Shown here: positions 20,406-57,801 of the stretch, piece by piece
Numbering within the stretch: position 1 is the stretch's first letter
Layout: every line of letters begins with the position of its first letter
Assembly (NCBI GenBank): GCA_041678665.1
Contig: JBAYNU010000002.1
Span: 5,039-69,038, forward strand
Length of the DNA: 64,000 nucleotides
From: Candidatus Magasanikiibacteriota bacterium
Lineage (GTDB): Bacteria > Patescibacteriota > Patescibacteriia > Magasanikbacterales > GWA2-37-8
Direction: 5' to 3'
Program-made: the position numbers and the translations under genes
Notes under the pieces: generated by a model
What the model saw: only the letters and a program-made list of their open reading frames with translations
Told to the model about the DNA's origin: nothing
The model's database searches: none

Positions 20406-21980
20406 TTATGATATTAATTTTTTAATAGCTATTTTGATTCTGTTTATAGTTTCGTCTTTTTTCAGAACTTCAGCAATTTCAAATGGCCCCGGTGATTTAT
20501 CTTGTCCAGACAGGGCAACTCGCAGAGGCCATAAAATCTCTCCGTTATTATAATTATTTTCTTTAATCCACTCCCCTATTTTAATTTCTAAATCACTCTT
20601 ATTCCAAGATTGAACACTAAAAGTATTCAGCAACTCTTCTAGGCCCGGTAAAACTTTTGTCACAGTCTCCATATTACTCTTTTTCCATACCAAAAGCGAG
20701 CTGTCATATTCTGGTAATTCAAACACAAATGCTAATGCTTTCGGCAGCTCCGCGAGTGTCGCGACTCTTTCACGCTCCAATGGTAACGCCTTTGTTAGTT
20801 GTTCATTATTAATTGTTAATTTACTGGTTTTAAAAAAAGGTACCACTCTTTCCACTAAATTTTCTAACGGCAGGCGTTTAATATACTCTTTATTAAACCA
20901 ATCCAATTTTTCCAAATTAAATACCGCTCCGGATTTATTTACTTTGGCAAAATCAAATTCTTTAATCAAATCCTCTAAAGTAAAAAGCTCGCGATTGTCT
21001 CCCGGATTCCAACCTAAAAATGCTACAAAATTTATAACTGCTTCCGGCAAATAACCTTTTTTAATATAATCCTCCACCGCCACATCACCCTGGCGCTTGC
21101 TTAACTTGGATTTGTCGAAATTCAAAAGCAGGGGCAAGTGAGCGAATTCGGGCGGCTGCCAGCCGAAATATTTATAAAGCTGTAAATGTTTGGGAGTGCT
21201 GGAAATCCACTCTTCGCCACGACTGGCGACGGTAATCCCCATTAGATGATCGTCCACTACTACGGCCAAATGGTAAGTGGGAAAGCCATCGGATTTAATA
21301 ATTACCTGATCATCAACCAGCTCATTTTTTATTCTGATTTCCCCACGAATTAGATCATTAAAAACCGTTTCGCCGAATTTTGGCATTTTCATGCGAATAA
21401 CATGCTTTTCGCCGCCCGCGATACGTTTTTTGGCTTCCTGAGGATCAATGCCGGCGCATAAACCATCGTATCCGGTTGGTATTTTATTTTTCTGCTGCTT
21501 TTCTCGTAATTCCATTAAACGCTCCGATGAACAAAAACAATAATAAGCGTGACCTCTATCTAATAATTCCTGGGCATATTTTTGATAAATTTCCAAACGT
21601 TCAGACTGTATATATGGTCCACGTTTACCCACCTGCGCCACACAATTGTCATTCTGAGGCGCAGCTGAAGAATCCTTTTGGCTTTCAGGTGACAAGAGAT
21701 CCTTCCCTGAAGGGGTCCCTTTGGGATGCCCGCTCAGGATGACATTATCAGCGCTCTTTTTTAAAACTACGCCCTCATCTGGAACCAGGCCGGCCCAAAC
21801 TAAGGAATTTAAAATATTTTTTACGCCATCCTCGACAAATCGCTCGCGGTCGGTATCCTCGATACGCAACAAAAACTGTCCGCCGTGTTTCTTGGCGTAA
21901 AGATAGGCATACAAAGCCGTGCGCAAACCGCCAATATGCAAATAACCGGTGGGACTAGGAGCAAAACGAGTTCTAATCAT
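20406..21980 (-). CDS. gltX: glutamyl-tRNA synthetase carrying an in-frame insertion of about 33 aa derived from a palindromic repeat
   Basis: HIGG and KMSK class I motifs; 524 aa; insertion ...SPESQKDSSAAPQNDNCVAQVG... is encoded by repeat 21646..21745. Confidence 0.9.
   Translation of the reverse strand: MIRTRFAPSPTGYLHIGGLRTALYAYLYAKKHGGQFLLRIEDTDRERFVEDGVKNILNSLVWAGLVPDEGVVLKKSADNVILSGHPKGTPSGKDLLSPESQKDSSAAPQNDNCVAQVGKRGPYIQSERLEIYQKYAQELLDRGHAYYCFCSSERLMELREKQQKNKIPTGYDGLCAGIDPQEAKKRIAGGEKHVIRMKMPKFGETVFNDLIRGEIRIKNELVDDQVIIKSDGFPTYHLAVVVDDHLMGITVASRGEEWISSTPKHLQLYKYFGWQPPEFAHLPLLLNFDKSKLSKRQGDVAVEDYIKKGYLPEAVINFVAFLGWNPGDNRELFTLEDLIKEFDFAKVNKSGAVFNLEKLDWFNKEYIKRLPLENLVERVVPFFKTSKLTINNEQLTKALPLERERVATLAELPKALAFVFELPEYDSSLLVWKKSNMETVTKVLPGLEELLNTFSVQSWNKSDLEIKIGEWIKENNYNNGEILWPLRVALSGQDKSPGPFEIAEVLKKDETINRIKIAIKKLIS
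21646..21745. repeat. palindromic dispersed repeat, family A copy (TGTCATTCTGAGG...CTCAGGATGACA), in-frame inside gltX
   Basis: terminal inverted repeats plus internal GAAGAATCC core shared with copies at 44400, 45579, 47714, 55814, 57744. Confidence 0.7.
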
Positions 21981-22734
21981 AATATTTTGATTTTATCACC
22001 AACCAAGTAAATACTATGGTAGCATTTATTATTCTAATTAATCTCTTAGGCTGAATAATTAGTCGATACATCCATTCTAACCCAATTCGGCGTAAAAATA
22101 AAGGGGCGCGCGGCACGGCACCGGAAATATAATCAAATGACCCTCCTACCCCCATTGCAATTTTAACCTTAGGGATTTTAGCTAAATTTTCGTGGATCCA
22201 TTTTTCTTGCTTACTCATACCAAAAGCAACGAAAAGAATATCCGTACTAAAATTATTTATTTTATTTAAAATTGTTTCGTTATCAGCGATTATTAATTCG
22301 TAGTTATTAATTCGTAGTTCTTCAATCTTCGGGCCCTTGTTGTATCCCGCGATTTTTAAATTCGGAAATTGCTTCTGTAAATTTTCCGCTGTTTTTTTGA
22401 CCACATCCTCACTGCCTGAACCAAGCAAATATATACTTTTTTCCTGTTCTGCCGCTAATTTACAAATATCCAGCATAAAGTCTACGCCGGTCACACGCTT
22501 TAAATTAAAAAACAATTTTAACCCAAATCCATCGCAGGTATTAACATCGCCAGTATTTAGTACTTGTTTAAAATATTCGTCTTTCTGCGCGCGCACGATC
22601 ATTTCGGGATTAATGGTGTAAATTTTAGCCTGCTTTTCGGAGTGCAAAAAATCTTTCGCTACGTTAATAGCTCCATCTTTGGTATAACTTTCCACTTTTA
22701 CCCCAAGCGCAAACATGTAATTATTTTTTTTCAC
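21973..22734 (-). CDS. WecB/TagA/CpsF family glycosyltransferase (GT26)
   Basis: CDGFGL, RVTGVDFM, YLLGSG motifs. Confidence 0.75.
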   Translation of the reverse strand: MKKNNYMFALGVKVESYTKDGAINVAKDFLHSEKQAKIYTINPEMIVRAQKDEYFKQVLNTGDVNTCDGFGLKLFFNLKRVTGVDFMLDICKLAAEQEKSIYLLGSGSEDVVKKTAENLQKQFPNLKIAGYNKGPKIEELRINNYELIIADNETILNKINNFSTDILFVAFGMSKQEKWIHENLAKIPKVKIAMGVGGSFDYISGAVPRAPLFLRRIGLEWMYRLIIQPKRLIRIINATIVFTWLVIKSKYYD

Positions 22735-22975
22735 CTTTAATAATATATAAAGAAACCATCACTACCAAAATCGTTAGAATTAAAGCATACAATAATTTAG
22801 CCAATGCTCCGTCACCGCTAGCCAACGGAAAATATTTTTCAATCAAGGACTTAACGGCTTCGTTCCATGCCAGAGATACTATCAAGCCAAGGCCAGCCAT
22901 GATGTAAGTGCCGATTTTGTGTTTTACCTCCAAGCGTACCTTTTGGGCTTCGGATTTAATGTCGATAGTGGGCAT
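22721..22975 (-). CDS. hypothetical small membrane protein
   Basis: 84 aa, two hydrophobic helices. Confidence 0.4.
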   Translation of the reverse strand: MPTIDIKSEAQKVRLEVKHKIGTYIMAGLGLIVSLAWNEAVKSLIEKYFPLASGDGALAKLLYALILTILVVMVSLYIIKGEKK

Positions 22976-22977
22976 AA

Positions 22978-23457
22978 TTACTTTAATTTAAATACATTAA
23001 TTAATTTTTTGATTTGCCTAACAAATAAAACATTGAGAACATTGGGAACAAATTTATAATAAGCGATATTTAGTAAAATTAAAATTACAATCACTATCGC
23101 ATCGTAGCTCTGGCGCATCCAATAATTATCTTCAAGTCGCACCCACATGCCGAATTCATCAAAAGTCAAGCCCAAGCCGACTCCATAAAAAAGTGCTGAC
23201 CAACGAAAAGCATCTGATTCTGCCGGCGGACGACGTAAAAGCAGATACAGACCAACTATGCATAAAATAACCACACCGTAAGTAAAATGATGAATGTGGA
23301 CACCTTTAACAGTGAGAAAAAGATTGGGCATTAAATGGCCAAGCACCAAATATACCACCAGACGCGAGGCGGCGAAGGTAATCAAAAACGCAAAAGCAAC
23401 CAAACCAATGATGCGCTTGGAGGTGATTGACTGATTTTGAGTAACGAAATTCTTCAT
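22978..23457 (-). CDS. hypothetical 4-TM membrane protein
   Basis: 159 aa, 4 predicted TM helices. Confidence 0.45.
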   Translation of the reverse strand: MKNFVTQNQSITSKRIIGLVAFAFLITFAASRLVVYLVLGHLMPNLFLTVKGVHIHHFTYGVVILCIVGLYLLLRRPPAESDAFRWSALFYGVGLGLTFDEFGMWVRLEDNYWMRQSYDAIVIVILILLNIAYYKFVPNVLNVLFVRQIKKLINVFKLK

Positions 23458-29064: not shown

Positions 29065-29124
29065 AGCTTGGTTCTTATCTCAAAACATGGTATAATAAAA
29101 TCGGACTTATTTAATCCGGTTTTT

Positions 29125-31299
29125 ATGTTTAAACGAATATTAATTGCCCTATTTTGTCTGTTGTTTCCGGTCTTGACGTTGGCCCAGTCTGATTTCAACC
29201 CCAACTTCATTATTTCGGATACTGAAACGCAAGATAGCAATTGCTGGACCCGCAACGATGTCCAGCAATTTTTAACTGCACGTGGCAGTTTTTTGCGTAA
29301 CTATACTTGCGCCGATGCCAGTGGCACCACCAAAACAGCGGCCGATATTATTTACGAAGCGGCACAAACTTATAATATCAACCCTAAATTTTTATTGGTA
29401 ACCCTGCAAAAAGAACAAAGTTTGGTAACCGATGACTCGCCTTCGCAAAAACAATTGGATTGGGCGACTGGGTATAGTGTGTGCGATTCATGCTCAATGG
29501 ACGACCCGAATTTACAAAAATTCCGCGGATTCGGTAAGCAAGTGGATAACGCGGCGGGCTTAATTCGCTGGTATTACGACAATAAAGACAATAAAAGTTA
29601 TATTAAGAAAAAAGACGCGCCCGTAATGATAGATAATACCCAAGTAACCCCGGACAGTTGGGCTACGGCATTTCTTTACACCTACACCCCTCACTTGCAC
29701 GGCAACAAAAATTTTTGGCGCATTTGGGAAACATGGTTTGGCCAAGTTTATCCCAATGGCACTATTTTTAAAACAGCATCATCGAGCGAATACTGGATGT
29801 TGCAAGACGGTAAGTTAAGAAAATTCAAAAATACCACCGCGCTCATTACCCGCGCCGACCCCAAAATGGCTGTGCCTATTTCTGAAACGGATCTATCCAA
29901 TTACCCAGCTGGTTTGGAAATTTCTTTTCCCAATTATTCTTTGCTAAAAACTTCGTCTTCATACTATCTGCTTGACTACGACACCTTGCGTCCGTTTGAA
30001 AGCGAAACAACGGTGTTTAAACTTGGCTTTAACCCGCAAGAAGTAATTGATGTAACCGAAACGGATTTAGCTGGATATTTGGTCGGTGCCACCATCACCG
30101 CGTCTTCCACCGCTCCCACCGGTATTATTTATTATGTGCCGGAATTAAAAGAACCCTACTATTATATCAAGGATGGGGTGGCGCGAGTGATTATTGACAA
30201 GCGCGTGGTAGAAGTCAACTTTAAAAAACTTAAAGTGGAAAAACGCGCGATTAAAGATTTACGCAAATTTACTTTGGCTAATGATTTAATAAATTTTAAA
30301 GACGGTATATTACTAAAAGCTAAAGAATTTAAATCCATCTATGTAATTGAAGACGGCCAGGCGCGCGCCATTGCTGATAATGATACCTTCAACGCCCTAG
30401 GATATAAACACGAAAATATTATCACTGTCCCACTCACAACTCTTATGGCCCTGCCTCAAGGCGAGCCGTTATATTTAAATACTTCCCTACTCTCTAAAAC
30501 TGATAAATTTCTAGGTGATTCCGAGGCAAACGTTGATGATTTGTTTGGATCCAAACTGCCGGTGTATTTAATTGCCGAATATCCCAGCGGTCGTATTATT
30601 TCCGGGAAAAATATTGATACTCAACGGCCAATTGCTTCAATTGTAAAAATTCTTACGGCTTATGAAGCTTTAAATCAAAGTTTTGATTTGAAAAAAACCA
30701 CTGTCTATAAATCCAAACTTTACGCTTCCGAAGGCAACCCGCTCAAATTTAAAGATGGACAGAAAATTTCCAATAGTGATATTTTTGCCTCCATGCTGGT
30801 AATTTCAGCTAATACTTGCGCGCGTATAGTGGCGCAAACTAGCGGGTTAACTACAGAAGAAGGTTTTATCCATGCCATCAACAACCGTTTAGCTGACTGG
30901 GGAGCAGATAATTCCAAAATGGTCGAGCCAACCGGCCTTGATCCAAACAATGTTTCCACAGCCCGAGATTTACTTAAGATATTTGTCAAAATCCTTAAAA
31001 ATGATATAATTAAAGACAGTCTAGATGACGTCAATTACAAGCTAAATACTATATTTTCCGGCAAAACTAGACGAACCATTACTAACACCAATTTACTTTA
31101 TCAACAAAAAAAACTACCTTATAAAATTTTAGCCAGTAAAACCGGCTACATTGACGAATCGGGTTCGAATTTAATAATACTTATCGAAGATCCGAAAACA
31201 AAAAAACAATATGTAATCATCACTTTAGGAGAATCAAATTATGCCAATCGCTTTGTCGAGCCGGATAAAATGGCCAAATGGACCATCAATCAAAAATAA
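29125..31299 (+). CDS. secreted protein with large N-terminal domain of unknown function and C-terminal S11 (PBP5-type) D-alanyl-D-alanine carboxypeptidase domain
   Basis: signal peptide MFKRILIALFCLLFPVLTLA; SIVK (SxxK), SAN (SxN), KTG motifs in the C-terminal 250 aa. Confidence 0.7.
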   Translation: MFKRILIALFCLLFPVLTLAQSDFNPNFIISDTETQDSNCWTRNDVQQFLTARGSFLRNYTCADASGTTKTAADIIYEAAQTYNINPKFLLVTLQKEQSLVTDDSPSQKQLDWATGYSVCDSCSMDDPNLQKFRGFGKQVDNAAGLIRWYYDNKDNKSYIKKKDAPVMIDNTQVTPDSWATAFLYTYTPHLHGNKNFWRIWETWFGQVYPNGTIFKTASSSEYWMLQDGKLRKFKNTTALITRADPKMAVPISETDLSNYPAGLEISFPNYSLLKTSSSYYLLDYDTLRPFESETTVFKLGFNPQEVIDVTETDLAGYLVGATITASSTAPTGIIYYVPELKEPYYYIKDGVARVIIDKRVVEVNFKKLKVEKRAIKDLRKFTLANDLINFKDGILLKAKEFKSIYVIEDGQARAIADNDTFNALGYKHENIITVPLTTLMALPQGEPLYLNTSLLSKTDKFLGDSEANVDDLFGSKLPVYLIAEYPSGRIISGKNIDTQRPIASIVKILTAYEALNQSFDLKKTTVYKSKLYASEGNPLKFKDGQKISNSDIFASMLVISANTCARIVAQTSGLTTEEGFIHAINNRLADWGADNSKMVEPTGLDPNNVSTARDLLKIFVKILKNDIIKDSLDDVNYKLNTIFSGKTRRTITNTNLLYQQKKLPYKILASKTGYIDESGSNLIILIEDPKTKKQYVIITLGESNYANRFVEPDKMAKWTINQK

Positions 31300-31363
31300 T
31301 TTTTTCAAAATCTGTTACCCAAAACCTGCCGGCAGGCAGGGCTAACAGCTATTAACTAAACAT

Positions 31364-35661: not shown

Positions 35662-36615
35662 GTGATTTCTGTAAATTTTTTTGGCACACATGATTTTGCG
35701 GCGGGAATTTTACAGGCGCTAATTGACAGCGCTGATTTTGAAATTAAAACCGTTTTCACGGTGCCGGATAAACCGATTGGTCGCCATCAGGAAATACAAA
35801 AATCTTCGGTAAAAATTTTGGCGGAAAAATATGGATTAAGAGTTGAACAACCGGAATCTCTACAAAATTTTTCCTTACTCCTTACTCCTTACTCCTTAAA
35901 CATCGTCTGCGATTACGGTTTGCTGATACCGAAAAACATTATTGATGCCCCGGGTCATGGCTCTCTCAATGTCCACCCTTCTCTACTCCCAAAATACCGC
36001 GGAGCGACACCTGTTCAGACGGCTTTAATGAATGGTGACAGCGAAACCGGTGTGACAATAATGCTGATGGATGAGAAGCTGGATCATGGCCCGATTTTGG
36101 CGTGGAAAACGATCAAAATTGATCCGACCGACAATTACACATCTTTGAGTGAAAAACTTCTAGAAACGGCCAAATCTTTGCTTATAGACACTGTCCAAAA
36201 GTGGGTTTTAGGGCCAAAAATGCCCCCCCAACCCCAGGATGACTCCAAGGCGACTGTTTGCCACGAATTGACTCGCGCTGATGGCCAGGTGGACTTCTCC
36301 GGTCAAACCGCCCAGCAGGTTTATAATCGCTTCCGCGCCCTTACCCCTTGGCCGGGGGTGTGGACGATGCTGGGTGGAAAACGGGTAAAACTACTATCTG
36401 TCATTACCGCCATGCCTACCGGCAGGCAGGCGAAAGCAGGAATCTGTGGCAGATCCCGGGTCAAGCCCGGGATGACAGCTATTGCGGATAATCAAATATT
36501 TTTTACCTGCGCCGATGGTAATCCAATCGAAGTATTAGAACTCCAAATGGAAGGAAAAAAACCAATGACTGCCAAAGAATTTATTAACGGATATAAAACA
36601 CTTCTCCATGCATAA
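35662..36615 (+). CDS. fmt: methionyl-tRNA formyltransferase (contains two short repeat-derived segments)
   Basis: formyl transferase N domain (NVHPSLLPKYRGATP) and C-terminal domain; tandem CCTTACTC x3 at 35872-35899 and a family-A-variant segment at 36410-36480. Confidence 0.9.
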   Translation: MISVNFFGTHDFAAGILQALIDSADFEIKTVFTVPDKPIGRHQEIQKSSVKILAEKYGLRVEQPESLQNFSLLLTPYSLNIVCDYGLLIPKNIIDAPGHGSLNVHPSLLPKYRGATPVQTALMNGDSETGVTIMLMDEKLDHGPILAWKTIKIDPTDNYTSLSEKLLETAKSLLIDTVQKWVLGPKMPPQPQDDSKATVCHELTRADGQVDFSGQTAQQVYNRFRALTPWPGVWTMLGGKRVKLLSVITAMPTGRQAKAGICGRSRVKPGMTAIADNQIFFTCADGNPIEVLELQMEGKKPMTAKEFINGYKTLLHA

Positions 36616-43567: not shown

Positions 43568-46500
43568 CTAAGCCCTAAATTCGCAAATATCCCTAAAATC
43601 ACATCGTCCACAAATAAATTGACTGGGGGTGGCGGCAAAATCACGAGCGTGAATACGCTGGATAGTTTCAAGCATTTTTTCTTGCACTGCGACAATTTCT
43701 TTTTCAGAACCAAAAAATGATATCTGGGAATTTTGGTTGAGATAATAAAAAGTTAATTTACTAACAACACCAATATGATAATATTCTGGAAGCGTTTTTA
43801 CAGCCAACTGGTAAATTAATAGCTGATTTTTGTCGTCGCTCGATAATTTTTCTTTACCTTTGCCGGTTTTGTAATCCACGATATGCAATGAGCCATCGGG
43901 TAATTGATCAATACGATCAATGCGACCGCTTACCGTGAACCCGCCAATTTTTATACGAAATGACCCTTCAAGTGTAACCGGAACTGTCCAGCCATTTTTT
44001 TCATTTTCTTCATAAAATTTTTTGAGCACTTCTTTGCCTTCGGTATAATAAGTGTCACGCTGACCCTTGCTTTCGTACCAATCATCAATCCAGTGTTGAT
44101 CGTAAATTTCCAACAATTCTTTAATTTCGGGTATTTTTAGGTTACCGGATTTTTTTAAGATCGTAATCGAACTGAACAATGAATCTTGGGTGGCGCTATT
44201 TAAAACGCGCGCGCGTTCATAAAATGCCTGTAAGGTTCCATGCATGCTTTGGCCAAAACTGAAATTAGCATTACCTTTGGTGGGTATGCCGACAACATTG
44301 GCCAGCTTGTATTGATACGGACAGGTAGAATATGAATTAAGCTGTGAATAAGAAAATCGTTCGGGGAGATGATAAATTGAATCAGAACGAACTTGATCAT
44401 TGTCATTCTGAGCGGAGCGAAGCGAAGTCGAAGAATCCTTTAAACTTTGCAATCGAAGGGATTCCTCCGCTCGCCCTGCGGGCTCGGTCGGAATGACAAA
44501 TTCACTTACTCCTTTTTCCTTGCTCCTTAATCCTTTCGCCTCGTATCCGAGCTCGCTCAAAAACCGACTGTTTTTTTTCTGTCGACTGCCACCATAATCA
44601 TCAGCACTGGTTAGATATAACTTTTCCTTAGCGCGGGTCATCGCCACATAAAACAACCTTCGTTCTTCTTCGATATGCTCGTCGCCTTCCGGTAATTGCT
44701 CTTTGATTAATTCAAAAGGAATTTCAATCGCTTCGGATCTCGCGCGCGATGGAAAACGTTCTTCCACCAAATTTACTACAAACACGTATTTAAATTCCAA
44801 ACCCTTGGAGCCATGAATAGTTAAAATATTCACCGAGTCAGGGGTATCCACCATTTGATGTAATGATCCCTTGTCGCCTGAATCCACAATGTAATTAAAA
44901 TGTTCCAAAAATCCAGATACGGTCGCGCCGGCTTCGGCGGTTTCATAAGCCGAAATATATTCCAAAAATTGCTTAAGCTGGTGAATTTGTCGAATGGCGC
45001 CGCGATTACCTGCTTCTTCTTGTTTTATTAAATAACTAAAATATCCACTTTCTTCCAACCACTCCACCAAAAGCGTGGTTGGTTTGCTATTACCAACCTT
45101 GGTTTGTCCAGTTTTAATCCAAGAAGTAATTTTTTGAGCAAGTTCAAATCCAGCAACGGATAAATATAATTCCGAAGCGCGCCTAAGCGACTCGAAATAG
45201 GAAACAGATTTCTTTTTGGCAAAAGAAGTTATTTTTTGGATATCCTCGGCTGGAAATTGTAAAAACGACAAATTTAACAAACGGAATATCGCGGTTGATT
45301 CGTGGTGATTATCTAATAATTTAAGAAAGTTGATACAGTCCAAAACAATGGGCTGACGATAAAGCCCGGCTGAAGCGATAAATTCGTATGGTATCCCCTG
45401 TTTTTCCAAAGCATTAATAAACGGATCGGCATGCGCGTTGGCTCTCACCAAAATGGCAAAATCATCCCAGGTCGCGCTTTCGTTGATGGTTCTGAGCCGC
45501 GCGATTTCGTCAACCACGCTTTTTACTTCTTCATCCAGTGTGGTAGAGTGAATGTGACAGACGCTCGCCGTTCGCGCGTTGTCATTCTGAGGCGTAGTCG
45601 AAGAATCCCTTCTACTTCGAACGTTAAAGGATCCTTCGCTTCGCTCAGGATGACAATTTGCGGTGAGTCGCTTATTTATTTTGAGCTTCACCTCCAACCG
45701 ATCCGGATTATTATTCTGAATAGATTTATATGCCAAATCCAAAATTTCCTGGCAAGAACGATAATTTTCATTAAGAACAATTTCTTTGGCCTGCGAATAG
45801 TCTTCTTTAAACCGTAAAATATTATTCACGCTGGCACCGCGAAAAGCATAGATTGACTGGTCATCGTCGCCAACGACGGTAAGCTGGTTTTCTTCGCCTG
45901 CAATCATTTGTACCAACTGGTATTGCGCCCAGTTCACATCCTGAAATTCATCCACCAAAATATATTTATAACGCTCGCGTAATAATTTCAAAATATTCGG
46001 TCGTTCACGCAATAATTTTATGGTGTAAAAAATCAAATCGCCAAAATCAAGCGCGCTGTTATCAAGAAGTAATTGATTATACGCGTGATAGGCGTTGGCG
46101 ATTTCGGAAAGGCGTTTAAAATCGACGGCGGCATTACTGTCATTCCCGTGAAAACGGGAATCCGCGACTTCTGGGGCAGATCCCCGCTTTCGCCTGCCTG
46201 CCGGCAGGCATGGCGGGGATGACAATGTAGAATCGCTGTCCAACTTCATCCCTTCCGCATACTCCAAATATTCTTGCGGTGTAATAAGTTCATCTTTACA
46301 TTTAGAAAAATGTTTTAAGAGTTCGTGAATATGCTTGGCTGGGTTTCCCAAAGGTCGATAATAATCCAAATCAAATTTATCTAAATTGCGCCGCACCAAA
46401 AGCCAAGCGTCGGTTTCGGTAAGTAATTTAAATTGATTAGGTAGACCAATGTCCAATCCATGATTTTCCAAAATCCGCTGGCAAAAAGCATGGAAGGTGG

Positions 46501-46756
46501 AAATTTGCATATCCACATATCCGAGCTCAAGCATTTCATCCACGCGCGTTTGCATTTCTCCGGCTGCCTTTTCCGTAAAAGTCAACGCCAAAATTTGCTC
46601 GGGAGTAGCGAGTTTATTTTCTATTAAATGTGTAATTTTTTGCGTAATTACCGTGGTCTTACCGGTACCGGCGCCCGCCACAATCAAAAGCGGGCCGGAG
46701 GCATATTCCACGGCCTGTTTTTGCGCGGGGTTGAGAGGGTATTTTGGCATAATCAT
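43568..46756 (-). CDS. UvrD/PcrA-family SF1 DNA helicase fused to C-terminal Cas4/RecB-type PD-(D/E)xK nuclease domain with Cys4 cluster; carries three in-frame repeat-derived insertions
   Basis: GAGTGKT Walker A; C-terminal GRIDRID, VDYKTGK, QLLIYQLA nuclease motifs and STCPY...CGRCDFRDIC cysteines; 1062 aa. Confidence 0.85.
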   Translation of the reverse strand: MIMPKYPLNPAQKQAVEYASGPLLIVAGAGTGKTTVITQKITHLIENKLATPEQILALTFTEKAAGEMQTRVDEMLELGYVDMQISTFHAFCQRILENHGLDIGLPNQFKLLTETDAWLLVRRNLDKFDLDYYRPLGNPAKHIHELLKHFSKCKDELITPQEYLEYAEGMKLDSDSTLSSPPCLPAGRRKRGSAPEVADSRFHGNDSNAAVDFKRLSEIANAYHAYNQLLLDNSALDFGDLIFYTIKLLRERPNILKLLRERYKYILVDEFQDVNWAQYQLVQMIAGEENQLTVVGDDDQSIYAFRGASVNNILRFKEDYSQAKEIVLNENYRSCQEILDLAYKSIQNNNPDRLEVKLKINKRLTANCHPERSEGSFNVRSRRDSSTTPQNDNARTASVCHIHSTTLDEEVKSVVDEIARLRTINESATWDDFAILVRANAHADPFINALEKQGIPYEFIASAGLYRQPIVLDCINFLKLLDNHHESTAIFRLLNLSFLQFPAEDIQKITSFAKKKSVSYFESLRRASELYLSVAGFELAQKITSWIKTGQTKVGNSKPTTLLVEWLEESGYFSYLIKQEEAGNRGAIRQIHQLKQFLEYISAYETAEAGATVSGFLEHFNYIVDSGDKGSLHQMVDTPDSVNILTIHGSKGLEFKYVFVVNLVEERFPSRARSEAIEIPFELIKEQLPEGDEHIEEERRLFYVAMTRAKEKLYLTSADDYGGSRQKKNSRFLSELGYEAKGLRSKEKGVSEFVIPTEPAGRAEESLRLQSLKDSSTSLRSAQNDNDQVRSDSIYHLPERFSYSQLNSYSTCPYQYKLANVVGIPTKGNANFSFGQSMHGTLQAFYERARVLNSATQDSLFSSITILKKSGNLKIPEIKELLEIYDQHWIDDWYESKGQRDTYYTEGKEVLKKFYEENEKNGWTVPVTLEGSFRIKIGGFTVSGRIDRIDQLPDGSLHIVDYKTGKGKEKLSSDDKNQLLIYQLAVKTLPEYYHIGVVSKLTFYYLNQNSQISFFGSEKEIVAVQEKMLETIQRIHARDFAATPSQFICGRCDFRDICEFRA
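44400..44499. repeat. family A palindromic repeat copy, in-frame inside the helicase gene
   Basis: TTGTCATTCTGAGCG...GAAGAATCC...CGGAATGACAA. Confidence 0.7.
45579..45656. repeat. family A palindromic repeat copy, in-frame inside the helicase gene
   Basis: TTGTCATTCTGAGGCG...GAAGAATCC...GGATCCTTC...CGCTCAGGATGACAA. Confidence 0.75.
46138..46225. repeat. family A variant copy (TGTCATTCCCG...CGGGGATGACA, internal GCCTGCCGGCAGGC palindrome), in-frame inside the helicase gene
   Basis: terminal IRs; related fragments at 36410-36480, 31320-31345, 46763-46790. Confidence 0.65.
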
Positions 46757-46892
46757 TACCTATCATTCCGATGAAAATCGGGATCTTTTACTATCGTATT
46801 TTACCCTACTTTCCGCTCATTGACAAGAAAACATTTTTATGCTAAAACAATACTATGTTTTCTAATCCAAACATCCAAGCAAGGAGAGAAAA

Positions 46893-47183
46893 ATGAAACA
46901 CAACGAAAGAGTCATCAATGCCGTGGTAATAGGGGCATTGATACTGGTATTCCTCCTGTGGTGGGGGCTAGCCAATGACTACGCGTCTTTTAAAAAGATG
47001 TGCGCGTTGTCAGAAGAAGCAGCTTGTCGTGAGGCAGGTTATGCTCCGCCCATCGTATGGAGCATGAATGAGAAAGCGCTCTTTTGCCATGACGACAAAG
47101 GGCTAAAACACCAAATAAAGATTCCAGCCTGCAACTGCAAGTTGGACCCTGGAGCGAAAGAATGCCGCTTCTTGAAAAAGTAA
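46893..47183 (+). CDS. hypothetical small secreted or membrane-anchored Cys-containing protein
   Basis: 96 aa, N-terminal hydrophobic helix, 6 Cys; strong AAGGAG SD; elevated GC. Confidence 0.5.
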   Translation: MKHNERVINAVVIGALILVFLLWWGLANDYASFKKMCALSEEAACREAGYAPPIVWSMNEKALFCHDDKGLKHQIKIPACNCKLDPGAKECRFLKK

Positions 47184-47186
47184 AAC

Positions 47187-47227
47187 AGACCGTGCAATCA
47201 GGGAGGATTGCACGGTCTCTATTTTTA
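47187..47227 (+). terminator. intrinsic terminator (copy 1 of a duplicated 52-nt segment)
   Basis: AGACCGTGCAATC-agggag-GATTGCACGGTCT 13-bp perfect stem followed by TATTTTTAT. Confidence 0.8.
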
Positions 47228-47303: not shown

Positions 47304-47636
47304 ATGAAAAAATATAAATGGGCAGTAGTATATTTATTTTTGGTCTTGCTCTTTTGGCAACTCGGCAATTTATTAAATGCCCACACCGAAAAGCTCAAAG
47401 CAGGTTTCATACTTTCGCAAGAAGCTTTATCGCTCTATTGCTATCATCGCTTCGGCGATGAAAGTGAAAAAGTAATGATAACAATAGGCGACACACAGCT
47501 GGAAAAAAAAGATTATACGATGTGTTTTGTCCCGCGAGAAGGGGCTCTCTACTTTATTGTGAGCCTAAATCAATGTACGAACACGCAGGACTATGACGAC
47601 TGCATGTTCCTCACCGGGGCGGCGGAAGAATTTTGA
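47304..47636 (+). CDS. hypothetical small secreted or membrane-anchored Cys-containing protein
   Basis: 110 aa, N-terminal hydrophobic helix, 4 Cys; AGGAGG SD. Confidence 0.5.
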   Translation: MKKYKWAVVYLFLVLLFWQLGNLLNAHTEKLKAGFILSQEALSLYCYHRFGDESEKVMITIGDTQLEKKDYTMCFVPREGALYFIVSLNQCTNTQDYDDCMFLTGAAEEF

Positions 47637-47650
47637 GCATAGCTTCAAAC

Positions 47651-47692
47651 AGACCGTGCAATCAGGGAGGATTGCACGGTCTCTATTTTTTA
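47651..47692 (+). terminator. intrinsic terminator (copy 2, identical to 47187..47227)
   Basis: same 13-bp stem followed by T-run. Confidence 0.8.
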
Positions 47693-47713: not shown

Positions 47714-47796
47714 TTGTCATTCTGAGGAAGTGAAACGACCGAAGAATCCCTTAAATCACAAAGTCAAAGAGATCCTTCGCTTCGCTCAGGATGACA
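47714..47796. repeat. family A palindromic repeat copy (intergenic)
   Basis: TTGTCATTCTGAGG...GAAGAATCC...GATCCTTCGCTTCGCTCAGGATGACAG. Confidence 0.7.
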
Positions 47797-47948: not shown

Positions 47949-49733
47949 TTAGTTTATGAACCCGCCCGCCTGAATACTCCAAAGCTTCTTGTAAACACCA
48001 GAAGTTTTTTTGACCAAATCCGCGTGCGTCCCCTCTTCAATAATTCCGCCTTCGCCAATCACAATAATTCGATCCATTTTCATGATAGTAGATAAACGGT
48101 GCGCCACGGTAATCACAGTTTTGTTTTTCATTAGATTGACAAGCGCATCTTGAATCAGATGTTCGGATTCAGAGTCCAAACTGGAAGTGGCTTCGTCCAT
48201 AATAAGAATCGGCGCGCCCCGTAAAATCGCGCGCGCAATCGCCACGCGCTGACGCTCACCGCCGGAAAGTTTTACTCCCCGCTCTCCCACAAAAGTATTA
48301 TATCCTTCGGAAAATTCGGATATAAACTCGTGACAATGCGCGAGCCGCGCGGCTACAAATACTTCTTCGTCGGTCGCGTCAAATTTTCCGTAACGAATAT
48401 TTTCCATTAAACTGCGATGAAATAAAATTGGATCCTGGGGCACATAGCTTACTGCCGCCCACAAACTTTCCAGTTTAACATCGGTGATATCATTCCCATC
48501 AATCAAAATCCGACCGCTGTCAATATCATACAAGCGCAACAATAATCTGGTAATGGTGGTCTTGCCGGCTCCCGACGGCCCCACAAACGCTACCTTTTCA
48601 CGCGAACTAATAGTCAAAGAAAAATCATTCAACACGCGCCGAGTTTCATTATAGCTAAAACAAACCTTATCAAAAACCACTTTCCCGTCTGTCGCTTGTA
48701 AATTTTTCGCTCGCGACTTATCCGCCACACCGTGCGGGGTTTTGAGAATTTCGGTCATCTCTTCGGCGTCGGCCATTTCTTGAAAAATATGGCGCATCAC
48801 CTTGCCGAAATCCCAAATCTTCATAAAAACGATAATCACATAGGATTGCAGTAATACAAAATCGCCAATTGTAAATTGTCCGGCTTGCCATAATTTTAAT
48901 CCATAGTAAAAAGCCACAAATTCCAAAATAAAAATCAAAAAACCCTGAACCGCTTCCACAGTATTATTGATATTCCAAGAGAACTTGCGCAAACGACGTA
49001 ATTTATCCAGCGCTACATCAAATAGACTGGTTTCTTTATTATAACCACCAAATAATTTTACATTGGTTTGGTTGGTAATGGTGTCTGCCAAAATAGCGGT
49101 AGTGGCCGACTCGGCTTCACTGCGTCTGATATCATAGGGCATCTTGAACTTAATCAATAGCCAATTGACGGTAAAAAATAAAGCTAACCACGCCAACATA
49201 ATATAACCCAAAAGATGACTCTTAAAAAATAACACCGCGATGACGACTGACAAGTTTATTACCAAAGGCAAAAGATTATATACCAGTCGATCCGCCAAAC
49301 CTTCAAACGCGCGTGTAAACCAATTAACCCGTTTTACCAAAGAACCCACAAAACTGCTGTTAAAAAAAGCGTAGGAATGCAAATGAAGATACCTAAAACA
49401 GGTATTGGCCAAATCCTTGAGCATCCAACTCTCCAAACTTACCAAAGTAAAAGTTTGGATGCGCCAAAACGCCCAATGTGTGAAATTGAGCGCTAAAATA
49501 ATAAGCAAAACAAACAATAAGGCATCAATAGAATTATTTTGACCAATTGATAAAATATCAAAGAATTTCTTGTAATACAGTGGAATAATCACATCAAATA
49601 CCGAAGCAAAAATTGTAGACAAAAATACCACTATCCCAAGCCAAGGATAGCGTTTTAGATGCTGCCAGTAAATTTTCATTGTCAATTTAGTATTATTTTG
49701 CATAAAATTTAGGAAAACACGACAAATCCGCAA
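47949..49733 (-). CDS. ABC transporter, fused permease/ATPase exporter (MsbA-like)
   Basis: 6 TM N-terminal domain; Walker A GPSGAGKTT, LSGGERQRVAIARA signature, Walker B ILIMDEATS. Confidence 0.9.
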   Translation of the reverse strand: MRICRVFLNFMQNNTKLTMKIYWQHLKRYPWLGIVVFLSTIFASVFDVIIPLYYKKFFDILSIGQNNSIDALLFVLLIILALNFTHWAFWRIQTFTLVSLESWMLKDLANTCFRYLHLHSYAFFNSSFVGSLVKRVNWFTRAFEGLADRLVYNLLPLVINLSVVIAVLFFKSHLLGYIMLAWLALFFTVNWLLIKFKMPYDIRRSEAESATTAILADTITNQTNVKLFGGYNKETSLFDVALDKLRRLRKFSWNINNTVEAVQGFLIFILEFVAFYYGLKLWQAGQFTIGDFVLLQSYVIIVFMKIWDFGKVMRHIFQEMADAEEMTEILKTPHGVADKSRAKNLQATDGKVVFDKVCFSYNETRRVLNDFSLTISSREKVAFVGPSGAGKTTITRLLLRLYDIDSGRILIDGNDITDVKLESLWAAVSYVPQDPILFHRSLMENIRYGKFDATDEEVFVAARLAHCHEFISEFSEGYNTFVGERGVKLSGGERQRVAIARAILRGAPILIMDEATSSLDSESEHLIQDALVNLMKNKTVITVAHRLSTIMKMDRIIVIGEGGIIEEGTHADLVKKTSGVYKKLWSIQAGGFIN

Positions 49734-49761
49734 AGGCGGATCGTTATATAATTATATAATC

Positions 49762-49986
49762 TCATTCGCTCAGAAATGTCTTTGTAAACAAAGCCACTTC
49801 TTCGCTCACTGCTATTATAGATGACGCGATAAACAAAAAAATGTTACAGTGGTAACATAAAAATTTGGACGCTAATCCATTCTCAAGACAAAGTTTATTA
49901 TTTTTCGCTGCAACCGCACCCGCAGCCATTGCCGCACTTGCAACAATGATAGCACACCGACTCTTGACAAGCGCAGCGGTCATCAT
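49762..49986 (-). CDS. ORF of 74 aa (Ala-rich N-terminus, hydrophobic C-terminus). Frame is ambiguous with the Cys-rich 42-aa ORF at 49898..50026.
   Basis: listed in ORF track; its third-codon-position composition fits the genome better than the alternative frame does. Confidence 0.2.
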   Translation of the reverse strand: MMTAALVKSRCAIIVASAAMAAGAVAAKNNKLCLENGLASKFLCYHCNIFLFIASSIIAVSEEVALFTKTFLSE

Positions 49987-50026: not shown

Positions 50027-50169
50027 ACAAAGAAGGAATAAAGAATAAGGATTAAGGAATAAACGAACACAAAATATATTTACTCCTTAATTTTTATTCC
50101 TTACTCATTATTATACCACAACCAAAAAACCCGGCAATACAACCGGGCTTTCGTGTCAAGTAGGGTAAA

Positions 50170-52439: not shown

Positions 52440-53399
52440 TTATTCCAACGCCGCCGATCCACCGGCGATTTCCGCAATTTCTTGCGTGATGCCGGCCTGG
52501 CGGGCTTTGTTAAAATTCAAATTTAATTCTTTGATCATATCGGTGGCCGCTTCAGACGCGTTTTTCATGGCCATCATGCGGGCGCTGTGTTCGCTGGCGG
52601 ACGATTCCAAAAGCGCTTGAAAAATTTGCGTTTCTACCAAACGCGGTAAAATAATTTTTAAAACCTCGGTACGATTTGGTTCAAATAAATATTCGCCTAG
52701 TTCGATTTTTGGTTCGCTTACTCCTTGTTCCTTATTCTTTATTCCTTCATTATCCCCGATCATCTTTTCCAAATCCACTTCCGACACCGGCAAAACCTGT
52801 CTTAACTTAGCCACCTGCGCGATGGCCGATTTAAAATCGGTGTAAGCCACTACCACCTTGTCGTATTTGCCGGATTCGTAATCCGCAATTATTGTACGCG
52901 CAGCCGGCAAAATATCTTTGAGCCCGGGAGTATCTGGCAGTCCGGTATAAGACGCGGTTAAATTGTATTTCATTTTTTTGGCAAATTCGGCGCCTTTTTT
53001 TCCAATTCCCAAAACATCCACCTCAATATTATCGGACGGCTCTACTACTTTTCCGGCCACGCGCTGGCGACTAATATTTTTGGGATCCTGGAGTTGCGCC
53101 GCCGTCTTGCGAATGATATTGGCATTGAAACTGCCGCACAGCCCGCGATTGCTGGTAATCAAGATCACTAATAATTTTTTCACCGGCCTAATATCCATAA
53201 GAGCAATGCCTTCGCGCTCGCCTTTGGAAAGATTTACCAAAAGATCCCAGGCCATTTTGGCATAGGTGCGCGTGTTTTGCGCCGCTTCCACCGCTTTTCT
53301 CATCTTGACGGCGGACATCATTTCCATGGCTTTGGTAATCTTTTTGGTATTACCCACGGATTTGATGCGACGTTTGATTGCTTTGGTATTTACGGCCAT
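52440..53399 (-). CDS. atpG: F1 ATP synthase gamma subunit (contains a family-B repeat-derived segment)
   Basis: N-terminal IKRRIKSVGNTKKITKAMEMMSAVKMRKA; start taken at MAVNTK (ORF track extends to 53408 with a non-ATG start). Confidence 0.9.
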   Translation of the reverse strand: MAVNTKAIKRRIKSVGNTKKITKAMEMMSAVKMRKAVEAAQNTRTYAKMAWDLLVNLSKGEREGIALMDIRPVKKLLVILITSNRGLCGSFNANIIRKTAAQLQDPKNISRQRVAGKVVEPSDNIEVDVLGIGKKGAEFAKKMKYNLTASYTGLPDTPGLKDILPAARTIIADYESGKYDKVVVAYTDFKSAIAQVAKLRQVLPVSEVDLEKMIGDNEGIKNKEQGVSEPKIELGEYLFEPNRTEVLKIILPRLVETQIFQALLESSASEHSARMMAMKNASEAATDMIKELNLNFNKARQAGITQEIAEIAGGSAALE

Positions 53400-53425: not shown

Positions 53426-53797
53426 TTACGATACACTTTCTATTTTTTCTTCTAATTTATCTATTGTCACCCAAATCATTTTTCCTATTTCATTAGACAT
53501 TTCCAAACCGACATTATATTCATCTTTACTAATCCAGTTCTGAATAAACGCGAAATATATTATATACTTACATTCTTGCGACGAACCATGTGATATCTCA
53601 TAAAAATTTAACTTAACTTTGTCTCGCCTACGCGCGTATCCCTCAACATAATTCAACATTATAGACATTGATGCTCGGCGCAACTGCGAACTAACGCCAT
53701 ACAATTCATTACTTGGAAAATTTTTCACTATCTGATAACAGTATAAAACGAATCTATTAATTTTATTTTTCAACAATACATGAAATTTTCCCTCCAT
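53426..53797 (-). CDS. four-helix-bundle protein (23S rRNA intervening-sequence protein family) inserted between atpA and atpG
   Basis: LRRASMSIMLNYVEGYARR...HGSSQECKYIIYFA core matches the TIGR02436-type four-helix-bundle family; flanked by inverted repeats. Confidence 0.75.
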   Translation of the reverse strand: MEGKFHVLLKNKINRFVLYCYQIVKNFPSNELYGVSSQLRRASMSIMLNYVEGYARRRDKVKLNFYEISHGSSQECKYIIYFAFIQNWISKDEYNVGLEMSNEIGKMIWVTIDKLEEKIESVS

Positions 53798-55324: not shown

Positions 55325-55403
55325 ATTTAATTAACAATTAACAATAAACAACTAACAAGTCAGCATACCGATTTGTTAATTGCTAATTGTTAGTTGTTAA
55401 TTT
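55325..55403. repeat. AT-rich inverted repeat built from AATTAACAA units (family C), atpH-atpA intercistronic
   Basis: AATTAACAATTAACAATAAACAACTAACAA ... TTGTTAATTGCTAATTGTTAGTTGTTAATT; same unit string at 671-704 inside alaS. Confidence 0.5.
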
Positions 55404-55406
55404 GCT

Positions 55407-55799
55407 TTATGATAATTTTTGTTTTAATCGCGCTAATTGTCTTTTTACACTCGCATCAAAAATAACTTCATCGGACTTAACTACTACTCCGCCAATAATA
55501 TCTTTATCTACAATCGGTGTAACTTCGCCTTGACTGGAAAAAACATCACCAATTTTAATTAATTCCTTATCGCTCATGCCACGAGCCGTTACCACATCCA
55601 AAGACACTATCCCCTGTTCTTTTTTGGCGTATTTTACAAATTCAGCAATTACCCGTTCGGCTTGTTTTAATTTATGCGCGCGCGCCAAAATTTTTACAAA
55701 TTCCGCGAGGATAATATGTAATTTTTCACCCTTCAAATCTTTGGTCAGCTCATACAAAGCTTTGGCGTATTGGGTTGTAGTGGTTTTCTTTTTGGGCAT
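55407..55799 (-). CDS. atpH: F1 ATP synthase delta (OSCP) subunit, short form
   Basis: OSCP-like helices; start placed at MPKKK because the 28 codons upstream are the translation of repeat 55814..55915. Confidence 0.7.
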   Translation of the reverse strand: MPKKKTTTTQYAKALYELTKDLKGEKLHIILAEFVKILARAHKLKQAERVIAEFVKYAKKEQGIVSLDVVTARGMSDKELIKIGDVFSSQGEVTPIVDKDIIGGVVVKSDEVIFDASVKRQLARLKQKLS

Positions 55800-55813: not shown

Positions 55814-55915
55814 TTGTCATCCTGAGTGAGCGAAGCGAATCGAAGAATCTGTGATTATTCGCCGATAAATTCTTCGACTTCATTCACCTTTGGCTCATTT
55901 CGCTCAGAATGACAA
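55814..55915. repeat. family A palindromic repeat copy, atpF-atpH intercistronic
   Basis: TTGTCATCCTGAGTGAGCGAAGCGAATCGAAGAATC...GAATTCTTCGAC...CGCTCAGAATGACAA. Confidence 0.7.
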
Positions 55916-56485: not shown

Positions 56486-56502
56486 GAAATGTTAAATTAT
56501 CA

Positions 56503-56545
56503 AACTGTTAAATTGTCACAAAAGCAATTTGACAATTTAACAGTT
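56503..56545 (-). promoter_or_regulatory. perfect 16-bp stem-loop between atpE and atpF (candidate mRNA stability/processing element)
   Basis: AACTGTTAAATTGTCA-N11-TGACAATTTAACAGTT, 18 nt upstream of the atpF start codon. Confidence 0.5.
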
Positions 56546-56826: not shown

Positions 56827-56959
56827 ATTTTTAGACCTTTACGACACAACTTCGACGAAGGGAAAATATTTTTTACTTCGCAAAGTTACATCTTTATTAA
56901 AACATTAAAGCATGAAAACATTAAAACAAACTGTTTTTATGTTCTCGTGTTCTGGTGTT

Positions 56960-57736
56960 TTAATGTTCGCTTTCGCCGTGCGGCGCCGTGGTCATTACTG
57001 TGAGATATACCAAGGTCAACATGGTAAATACCGCCGCTTGAATCAAACCGACTAAAATTTCCAAAAGCATAAACGGGGTTGGTACAAATAACCCTACCAA
57101 ACTACTCATCACTGTCATTAAAACTTCGCCAGCAAAAATATTACCAAATAACCGCAAAGATAAAGATAATACTTTGGCCATTTCCGAAATAATTTCCAAA
57201 ATCCCCACGAATAATTCAATAAAAGCGGTAAATATAGCGATCGGTCCCTTTTTTAAACTTTTAATAAAACTGCCGATTTGAATAAATTTGTTTAGATGAG
57301 TAAAAAGACCCACGGTAATAAAACCAAACAAATGTGAAACCACTACCGATGTCAAAGCCATGGCTACAGTAAGATTAAGATCGGTGTTGGCCGGACGCAA
57401 TAACATTTTACCGCCCCAAGTAATGGAACCGGTACCAGGAATAAGACCGAGCCAATTGGAGAGTAAAATAAAAAAGAAAACCGAACCGACGATGGGCAAA
57501 AAACGCATAGTCTTTTTTCGATCTCCGGTTACTTGATCAAAATATCCCAATAAAATTTCTAAAAAATATTCAATAAAATTTTGTAATTTTTTGGGGCGAA
57601 GCGAAATTGACTTGCGTAAAATAATACCTAACACCAAAAAAATAATCAAAGCAATCCAAGTATTCAGCATGGTATTGGTGATAGCGAAGCCTCCGATGGT
57701 AGTGAGTGTATCCGGTGCTAATGTCGGTATGTGCAT
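56960..57736 (-). CDS. atpB: Fo ATP synthase a subunit
   Basis: 5-6 TM, conserved Arg-containing helix (LSLRLFGNIFAGE). Confidence 0.9.
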   Translation of the reverse strand: MHIPTLAPDTLTTIGGFAITNTMLNTWIALIIFLVLGIILRKSISLRPKKLQNFIEYFLEILLGYFDQVTGDRKKTMRFLPIVGSVFFFILLSNWLGLIPGTGSITWGGKMLLRPANTDLNLTVAMALTSVVVSHLFGFITVGLFTHLNKFIQIGSFIKSLKKGPIAIFTAFIELFVGILEIISEMAKVLSLSLRLFGNIFAGEVLMTVMSSLVGLFVPTPFMLLEILVGLIQAAVFTMLTLVYLTVMTTAPHGESEH

Positions 57737-57743
57737 AATTGGT

Positions 57744-57801
57744 TTGTCATCCTGAGTGAAACGAAGGATCTAGATTCTTCGACTACGCCTCAGAATGACA
57801 A
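57744..57801. repeat. family A palindromic repeat copy (short form), exactly fills the atpZ-atpB intercistronic gap
   Basis: TTGTCATCCTGAGTGAAACGAAGGATCTAGATTCTTCGACTACGCCTCAGAATGACAA. Confidence 0.7.

Follow-up and report, generated by a model that had tools for sequence, protein, structure and literature searches.

Palindromic hairpin doublets inserted in-frame in essential genes of a Patescibacteria genome, and their probable kinship with GIY-YIG nuclease cassettes

A stretch of 64,000 nucleotides from a Candidatus Magasanikiibacteriota bacterium (Patescibacteriota; assembly GCA_041678665.1, contig JBAYNU010000002.1, positions 5,039 to 69,038 of the forward strand), hereafter termed the window, contains a family of short dispersed palindromic repeats which lie between genes as well as, in-frame, within genes for essential proteins. 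The repeated entity is a unit of ~27 nt in which a TGTC tag that stays unpaired is followed by a hairpin, its stem beginning with AT, and by a tail led by C, and in every full copy two such units are inverted with respect to each other to form a doublet with its tags outward. Two sub-types are distinguished: A-type units (six doublets), with the canonical 26-mer TGTCATYCTGAGCGAAGCGAAGRATC, and B-type units (two doublets), which resemble the NTS hairpin of Neisseria. The window holds eight doublets and one lone unit, in addition to a decayed remnant, and five of the eight doublets lie in-frame within genes, i.e. in gltX, in fmt and, three times, in a gene for an AddA-like UvrD/PD-(D/E)XK helicase-nuclease (open reading frame (ORF) 43568-46756, minus strand, 1062 aa; hereafter the helicase). 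The individual features, with the strand of each unit in brackets, are as follows.

21646-21745: A-type doublet, in-frame in gltX (ORF 20406-21980, minus strand); units 21648-21676 (+) and 21696-21743 (-); encodes residues 79-112 of GluRS, NVILSGHPKGTPSGKDLLSPESQKDSSAAPQNDN.
36399-36480: B-type (NTS-like) doublet, in-frame in fmt (ORF 35662-36615, plus strand), residues 246-273, SVITAMPTGRQAKAGICGRSRVKPGMTA; the left unit (~36399-36444) is decayed, while the right unit, 36450-36476 (-), reads TGTC ATCCCGGG CTTGA CCCGGGAT C.
44400-44499: A-type doublet, in-frame in the helicase, in the linker joining the helicase and nuclease domains; units 44402-44439 (+) and 44458-44497 (-); encodes FVIPTEPAGRAEESLRLQSLKDSSTSLRSAQNDN.
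45579-45656: A-type doublet, in-frame in the helicase; units 45581-45609 (+) and 45628-45654 (-), the latter being the exact canonical 26-mer; encodes NCHPERSEGSFNVRSRRDSSTTPQNDN.
46138-46225: B-type (NTS-like) doublet, in-frame in the helicase; units 46139-46164 (+), TGTC ATTCCCGT GAAA ACGGGAAT CCG, and 46177-46223 (-), whose loop has a nested CCTGCCGGCAGG hairpin; encodes LSSPPCLPAGRRKRGSAPEVADSRFHGNDS.
46763-46787 (+): lone unit lacking a proper tag, ATTCCGAT GAAA ATCGGGAT C, which precedes the helicase start codon by 7 nt.
47714-47796: A-type doublet, intergenic between the convergent ORFs 47304-47636 (+) and 47949-49733 (-); units 47716-47750 (+) and 47769-47795 (-), the latter again the exact canonical 26-mer.
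49752-49772 (-): decayed remnant of an A-type unit, GACATTTCTGAGCGAATGAGAT, upstream of the start of an ABC-transporter gene.
55814-55915: A-type doublet between atpF and atpH; left unit with one stem mismatch, right unit 55866-55913 (-).
57744-57801: minimal A-type doublet between an atpI-like gene and atpB; units 57746-57772 (+) and 57771-57799 (-), with practically no spacer separating them.
Same contig, ~8 kb past the end of the window (L123:1137-1170): lone A-like unit TGTCATTCTGATCCGCCGGCTGGCGGGGAAGAATCCC, in-frame in bacA/uppP, encoding EGILPRQPADQNDS.

The annotated start of atpH (55883) falls inside doublet 55814-55915; however, an ATG at 55799, just beyond the element, is the likelier start, and this, together with a Pfam match beginning from residue 30, suggests that the doublet is intergenic.

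The repeats were confirmed to be a real family, as the terminal motif TTGTCATYCTGAGG (up to two mismatches) was counted 12 times in the window where 0.46 occurrences are expected, a count reached in none of 100 shuffles, while every one of the seven full copies identified by an earlier, sequence-only reading of this DNA was located at the coordinates given there and proved more stable in folding than its own shuffles (z = -2.6 to -4.9). That reading was borne out within the window as regards both the family and the hairpins that it had predicted. Its description of the repeat as a palindrome of 58-102 bp was correct as to palindromic character, but took pairs of inverted units for the repeated entity, and the terminal repeats and core that it held to be common to all copies are not present in all of them, the B-type doublet 46138-46225 having neither that terminal motif nor the GAAGAATCC core. 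Among the segments which it regarded as fragments, 49752-49772 is indeed a decayed remnant, whereas 36410-36480 is part of the complete B-type doublet 36399-36480, 46763-46790 is the lone unit without a tag, and 31320-31345 is only a sub-hairpin, CCTGCCGGCAGGCAGG. It overlooked the hairpin at the level of the unit, with its compensatory changes, and the tie to a GIY-YIG nuclease gene, both of which are described below. Rfam at gathering thresholds gave no match in the window, ARAGORN detected no tRNA in it, and a literature search with the literal repeat sequence returned primer sequences only and nothing relevant.

Short dispersed copies with inverted ends (TTGTCAT...ATGACAA) and internal similarity among them are what would be expected of classical MITEs, i.e. 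deletion derivatives of a DDE-transposase insertion sequence that move by cut-and-paste via their terminal inverted repeats. However, no target-site duplication was found beside any of the eight doublets, the supposed terminal repeat folds upon itself with compensatory changes and also occurs singly, its base-exact conservation across phyla (see below) is unlike that of lineage-bound MITEs, and no transposase family, Y1_Tnp included, was present among the Pfam matches for the reachable parts (79 kb) of the contig. An origin as classical MITEs is consequently regarded as extremely unlikely.

A scan for tag plus stem picked up 14 of the 16 units of the eight doublets, all 14 of which begin with TGTC and 13 of which have a tail with a leading C (the tails being CCT, CCC, CCG, CTC, CTG and CTA). 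The A-type unit follows the scheme TGTC-ATYCT-GA-GCGNAGC-GA-AGRAT-C, with GCGAAGC as its canonical core, such that only five Watson-Crick pairs (ATYCT with AGRAT, thus starting with AT) are followed by tandem G.A pairs, a GC-GNA-GC core or longer inserts, and a second tandem G.A. In the window the A-type stem occurs in two versions that differ by paired changes, ATTCT/AGAAT and ATCCT/AGGAT. The B-type units have 8-bp stems, as in TGTC ATTCCCGT GAAA ACGGGAAT CC and its relatives, and the right side of doublet 46138-46225 reads GATCCCCGC...GCGGGGAT GACA; the three stems present in the window are ATTCCCGT/ACGGGAAT, ATCCCCGC/GCGGGGAT and ATCCCGGG/CCCGGGAT, closed by loops of GAAA (46139-46164), 25 nt (46177-46223) and CTTGA (36450-36476), respectively. 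The palindrome CCTGCCGGCAGGCAGG, which stands alone at 31320-31345 after ORF 29068-31299, is additionally nested in two B-type loops (~36413-36428 and 46191-46206), as if a hairpin had been inserted into a hairpin.

Compensatory changes were also evident among 92 units located beside GIY-YIG genes in other genomes, at loci retrieved by protein and not by repeat sequence. The third stem position is T-A in 51 of these units, C-G in 34, A-T in two and G-C in two, leaving three without a Watson-Crick pair, a single one of which is a T.G wobble; the inner cores encountered are GCGCAGC, GCGAAGC and GCGTAGC. GCGNAGC is an extraordinarily stable DNA mini-hairpin motif (PMC13037366), and its occurrence as the core, together with the near absence of wobble pairs, points to a structure that would act at the level of DNA rather than RNA. 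The rarity of wobble pairs (1/92) likewise argues against a mainly RNA-level structure, one form of the host-serving role that is weighed below.

To place the in-gene copies in an evolutionary context, homologue alignments and structure models were consulted. In GluRS the site is empty in 116 of the 120 nearest homologues (60-72% identity), the remainder comprising two (P0013 and P0055) whose insert is of this family but shorter, and two whose inserts are unrelated. The first helicase insert (46138-46225) is matched by just two residues in 97 of 120 homologues. The second and third fall in variable regions where other Patescibacteria have repeat-coded peptides of their own, and CHSERSEES.., VILSEAK.., ..LRMTK, ..AQDDK and ..RGNDN were all seen in the loops of helicase homologues. 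The loop of the second insert (45579-45656) is a hot spot, since related inserts, read in one or the other of two frames, were found there in 13 of the 120 homologues, and for eight of the 13 the nearest relative is a non-carrier, one such pair being 92% identical. In fmt the loop is 13-16 aa shorter in the nearest representatives, which rules out a clean addition of 28 aa and indicates that the native loop was partly replaced or lost. The alignments therefore support the view, already put forward by the sequence-only reading, that the segments in gltX and the helicase were inserted in-frame and are specific to the lineage. Its proposed placement in loops agrees equally well with the AlphaFold models: in that of GluRS (pLDDT 89.7) the sole segment below 50 (residues 78-110) is a coil situated at a beta-hairpin tip, and in that of the helicase the three longest segments with pLDDT below 50 (173-203, 368-393 and 740-790) are the three inserts, so that all four appear to sit in loops or low-confidence coils. 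Palindromes of this kind, lineage-specific and in-frame in conserved proteins as are the Rickettsia palindromic elements (RPEs), were found in gltX, the helicase (three sites), fmt and bacA.

It might alternatively be supposed that the in-gene segments are ancestral or functional features of the proteins and that their DNA similarity is secondary, and related peptides do occur in the same loops of some homologues, distant ones included, which the sequence-only reading had named as an observation that would speak against insertion. These segments, however, differ in reading frame, length and sub-type, their carriers are scattered, and nearest relatives lack them, a pattern that suggests recurrent gain or loss at permissive loops and not ancestry. 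Moreover, the same DNA is also found in non-coding positions, and the segments are the least confident coils of both models. The ancestral reading is contradicted by the alignments and is considered barely conceivable.

Four of the six reading frames of a unit are open (CHSERSEES, VILSEAKN, GFFASLRMT and ILRFAQND), and the resulting peptides are hydrophilic. All four in-frame copies previously proposed in gltX and the helicase were verified by Pfam matches and a frame check, which added the fifth, in fmt, that had been missed. Just three of the four end in QNDN as claimed, the copy at 46138 ending in HGNDS, and the argument drawn from their shared orientation carries little meaning for a near-palindrome, particularly as QND is merely one of two frames open in the terminal unit; the other, RMT/GMT, is used in fmt. 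Intragenic placement as a general trait of the candidate phyla radiation (CPR) found no support, since no A-type unit out of nine (five CPR loci) lies in a long open frame, compared to 23/161 in other phyla, a figure that is an upper bound inflated by spurious frames at high GC.

Different repeat-coded peptides were observed in the same loops of other Patescibacteria, namely in GluRS of P0025 and in the helicases of P0127, P0134 and P0215, with sequences such as ..PHLNLLLKGEEVVDPSPVRRGQGEV.., ..PPNLPLERGGGQPFPLSKGEYKGV.. and ..SPAGRQYPIS.., which suggests that these permissive sites are shared by several families of palindromic repeats.

The A-type unit is not restricted to the present genome. 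The exact 26-mer was retrieved from genome sequences of at least 12 phyla, with at least 120 loci in all and complete genomes among them (Acidobacteriota, Nitrospirota, Nitrospinota, Chloroflexota, Bacillota, Bacteroidota, Verrucomicrobiota, Planctomycetota, Cyanobacteria, Gemmatimonadota, Pseudomonadota, Bdellovibrionota and Patescibacteria), as well as from 50 viral-contig stretches, and it is often arranged as a tags-outward doublet, as in the window. The earlier suggestion of a novel, CPR-specific element is thereby overturned, the more so as the superfamily to which the units appear to belong, that of the CGTC-tagged REPs and Ssn-related motifs (SRMs), had already been described and includes Neisseria dRS3/NTS and Rickettsia RPE-4 and RPE-6.

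A small gene encoding a GIY-YIG nuclease was identified in association with these hairpins in other genomes. In a Gracilibacteria locus (L008) it is surrounded by clustered A-type units and extends at its 3' end into one of them (..DSSLRSE*), and it is likewise flanked by A-type units in two Patescibacteria loci (L089 and L257) and a viral contig (L249). Among 80 metagenome loci retrieved with the GIY-YIG protein alone, a tagged hairpin is located within 300 bp of the gene in 71 and on both sides of it in 42, the commonest orientation being with tags outward. In the first 100 bp beside the gene, unit density amounts to 7.0 per kb as compared to 0.3 per kb beyond 1.5 kb (23-fold), and for A-type units alone to 3.2 per kb near the gene versus 0.02-0.1 per kb far from it (at least 30-fold). 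The encoded proteins constitute a very conserved clade (~95 aa; 92-126 aa, most below 110; 58-68% identical across phyla) with Pfam GIY-YIG matches at E = 4e-16 and 2e-16. The contigs on which the clade is found (loci L127-L206 and clade matches) are mostly 0.5-2 kb long and end near hairpins, which suggests that hairpin-nuclease cassettes commonly break metagenome assemblies and are hence under-represented in binned genomes.

SsnA, a 94-aa single-domain GIY-YIG nuclease, binds the NTS, CGTCATTCCCGCGMAVGCGGGAATCYRG, and cuts a few bases upstream of its tag, in single-stranded DNA only, while Ssn genes are typically flanked by such hairpins in an insertion-sequence-like arrangement (PMC11893778, Nat Commun 2025;16:2388). 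GIY-YIG genes located 23-68 bp from a canonical NTS gave full-length matches to the profile of the present GIY-YIG clade (E = 1e-27 to 1e-33), on which basis the clade would belong with the NTS-associated, Ssn-type nucleases; this putative homology is judged via the NTS-adjacent genes rather than SsnA itself, and a PDB search with the clade returned distant UPF0213 relatives only and no Ssn structure. The published SRM pattern, HGTCWYN(0-2)YYVSBRHN(0-5)WNVSBRGN(0-2)RNCYNB, matches two B-type units in the window (46138-46165, plus strand, and 36449-36477, minus strand) where 0.03 matches are expected, and the two B-type doublets can be classed, by their sequence, as canonical NTS-like hairpins.

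The inverted doublet of hairpin units is exactly the architecture of REPINs (PMC3337134), and the lack of target duplications would be expected for single-strand transposition, such that the doublets could be REP pairs moved by a RAYT, a tyrosine transposase of the HUH/Y1 type. Their tag is TGTC, however, and not GTAG, the gene that is flanked encodes a GIY-YIG protein, no Y1_Tnp was among the Pfam matches mentioned above, and no association with a tyrosine transposase was found for CGTC-type repeats (PMC3733652). Mobilisation by a RAYT is accordingly thought very unlikely.

Since the same units flank a GIY-YIG gene elsewhere, and since the family includes the hairpin-cutting SsnA, the doublets are read as gene-less, MITE- or REPIN-like derivatives of hairpin-ssn-hairpin cassettes, spread or maintained by the nuclease in trans, an interpretation to which a probability of roughly two in three (0.68) is assigned. 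The parent would be a cassette of ~0.5 kb, to which the doublet would stand as a MITE stands to its insertion sequence or a REPIN to its REPtron, and an Ssn-type nuclease would act in trans on single-stranded DNA to spread or maintain the doublets. An insertion into coding DNA would survive provided that it falls in a permissive surface loop, keeps the frame and uses one of the four open frames, with encoded peptides that are hydrophilic and predicted to be disordered; that four of six unit frames are open would thus account for the retention of doublets in coding DNA. The anatomy, the compensatory stem changes, the lineage-specific insertions in loops, the cross-phylum spread and the GIY-YIG association were observed directly; the movement of doublets by the nuclease, and the chemistry of that movement, are inferred.

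A number of observations weigh against this derivation from nuclease cassettes. Neither a regular expression nor a profile search detected a GIY-YIG/ssn gene in the window or in 79 kb of the 94.6-kb contig, and loci retrieved with the 26-mer contain a GIY-YIG gene in only 3/120 genome and 1/50 viral cases among the matches listed; most copies thus lie far from any nuclease gene, as is expected under trans action, of which it is no proof. The SRM pattern matched none of the A-type units in the window and just one of the 80 GIY-YIG clade loci. To our knowledge, no transposition chemistry is known for Ssn nucleases, and a tags-outward doublet would offer one cut per strand, unlike IS200/IS605 elements with two on one strand. 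Finally, the Neisseria hairpins restrict incoming transforming DNA rather than being mobile, and only 2% of them are intragenic (PMC11893778). The small ORFs 46893-47183 and 47304-47636, which lie between the lone unit at 46763 and the doublet at 47714, were rejected as candidates for the nuclease, as they are Cys-rich with hydrophobic, signal-peptide-like N-termini and have no Pfam match.

It may instead be argued that the hairpins are signals which serve the host, either by marking self DNA, with Ssn trimming incoming or displaced single strands and tuning recombination, or as RNA terminators or stabilisers, in which case recombination and selection would raise the copy number, with the intragenic copies as by-products. 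Such a role is consistent with the modulation of Neisseria meningitidis transformation by SsnA and the NTS (PMC11893778), with the position of the three intergenic doublets between unidirectional or convergent genes, as reported for REPs, and with the base-exact 26-mer in at least 12 phyla, which implies constraint by a conserved binding protein. It leaves unexplained, however, how identical doublets arrived in unrelated essential genes at lineage-specific sites, and the tags-outward flanking of a nuclease gene resembles an insertion sequence. We consider signals of this sort unlikely as an explanation, while noting that a host-serving role, be it in the control of recombination and transformation or through effects of intergenic copies on RNA 3' ends, could coexist with mobility.

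Returning to the doublets as cassette derivatives, the findings indicate that the superfamily is active in the CPR, and that a hairpin variant which escapes the published pattern is base-exact in at least 12 phyla and tightly coupled to an Ssn-type clade. CGTC-type REPs and the related Rickettsia elements have stood as protein-invading repeats for more than 10 years and we know of no enzyme that mobilises them; the GIY-YIG clade represents a concrete and testable candidate. A bolder proposal, which is tentative and rather doubtful, is that the A-type hairpin and its GIY-YIG partner constitute an unrecognised pan-bacterial mobile system in which the nuclease serves as transposase, moving doublets in trans and time and again remodelling surface loops of essential proteins in reduced genomes like those of Patescibacteria; if true, the mobilising enzyme that has long been missing for CGTC-type REPs, RPE-4 and RPE-6 would thereby be provided. 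The combination of four open frames, hydrophilic peptides and loop sites would furthermore provide a rule for survival in essential genes, while repeat-coded peptides (..CHSERSEES.., ..VILSEAK.., ..LRMT.., ..AQND..) inflate and distort protein predictions and alignments in metagenome-assembled genomes.

Several other repeats and genes were noted in the vicinity. A perfect 44-nt direct repeat, AAACAGACCGTGCAATCAGGGAGGATTGCACGGTCTCTATTTTT, composed of a GC hairpin followed by a T-run, is present at 47183-47226, where it overlaps the stop of ORF 46893-47183, and at 47647-47690, 11 nt past ORF 47304-47636; as both ORFs are small and Cys-rich with a hydrophobic N-terminus, it has the look of a terminator that was duplicated behind two small genes for secreted proteins. 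Intergenic DNA across the window also has, in both orientations, degenerate heptamers of the TTAACAA / AATTGTT type arranged in tandem (669-700, 20792-20822, 55329-55406, 56487-56516 and 63702-63739). A second heptamer family, the Shine-Dalgarno-like AAGGAGT / AAGGAAT, was found at 35856-35904, 44501-44535, 50029-50115, 52705-52751 and 60693-60747; the run at 44501-44535, inside the helicase gene, adjoins doublet 44400-44499, and its translation is KGLRSKEKGVSE. Between atpA and atpG, in the ATP synthase operon, there is a 123-aa gene (53426-53797, minus strand) that belongs to the 23S_rRNA_IVP / bAvd-like four-helix-bundle family, a further member of which is located near the GIY-YIG genes of Patescibacteria locus L257.

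The CGTC-tagged REPs (Di Nocera et al. 2013, BMC Genomics 14:522, PMC3733652) carry a CGTC tag, often TGTC, with CCTC accepted, an 8-9 bp stem starting with AT, a loop of 4-5 nt and a three-base tail (consensus CCA), they mostly form inverted dimers, and their intragenic copies are notable in UvrD/RecBCD-type repair genes and tRNA synthetases. The window units share the tag, the AT-starting stem, the short tail, the inverted dimers with often differing partners, the copies inside repair genes and tRNA synthetases, and the absence of an adjoining transposase gene, and the B-type units 46139-46164 and 36450-36476 also conform to the stem and loop of that definition. In contrast, the A-type, with its five Watson-Crick pairs, tandem G.A and tri-loop core, lies outside the 8-9 bp stem and 4-5 nt loop; the REPs were described from five phyla, mostly alpha-proteobacteria and not Patescibacteria, and the intragenic share in the window (5/8 doublets) is high.

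With respect to the NTS/SsnA system, a B-type unit, TGTCATTCCCGTGAAAACGGGAATCCGC, is nearly identical to the NTS, and hairpins stand on both sides of a ~95-aa single-domain GIY-YIG gene in other genomes, whereas the A-type falls outside the SRM pattern, Patescibacteria are unmentioned in PMC11893778, and gene-less in-frame doublets in essential genes form no part of that account, with its low intragenic share in Neisseria. REPINs and RAYTs (Bertels and Rainey 2011) are similar in that two inverted REP hairpins and a spacer form a non-autonomous element linked with a nuclease or transposase gene that is present in single copy and has the same hairpins on its flanks; they differ in their GTAG tag and HUH/Y1 tyrosine transposase fold, in place of TGTC and GIY-YIG, and in being essentially extragenic.

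The likeness to Rickettsia elements drawn by the sequence-only reading turned out to be closer than an analogy, given that RPE-6 (CGTC-1) and RPE-4 (CGTC-4) of Rickettsia conorii are, along with Neisseria dRS3, members of the superfamily (PMC3733652) whose definition the B-type units match. The window elements resemble RPE-1 of Rickettsia in being in-frame palindromes in essential proteins of a small-genome, host-dependent bacterium, tolerated in surface regions. RPE-1-type elements (Ogata et al. 2000, as cited in PMC3733652) were likened to the present ones by description and not by sequence. They are longer and a separate type of palindromic insertion (per PMC3733652), unlike the window elements, whose doublets are built from a unit that occurs across phyla. 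Elements of this kind are already known, their in-frame invasion of repair genes and synthetases included, and a literature search returned no paper connecting Patescibacteria with REP, REPIN or MITE elements; what is new is the host group, the high intragenic share, the A-type variant and its cross-phylum pairing with one GIY-YIG clade.

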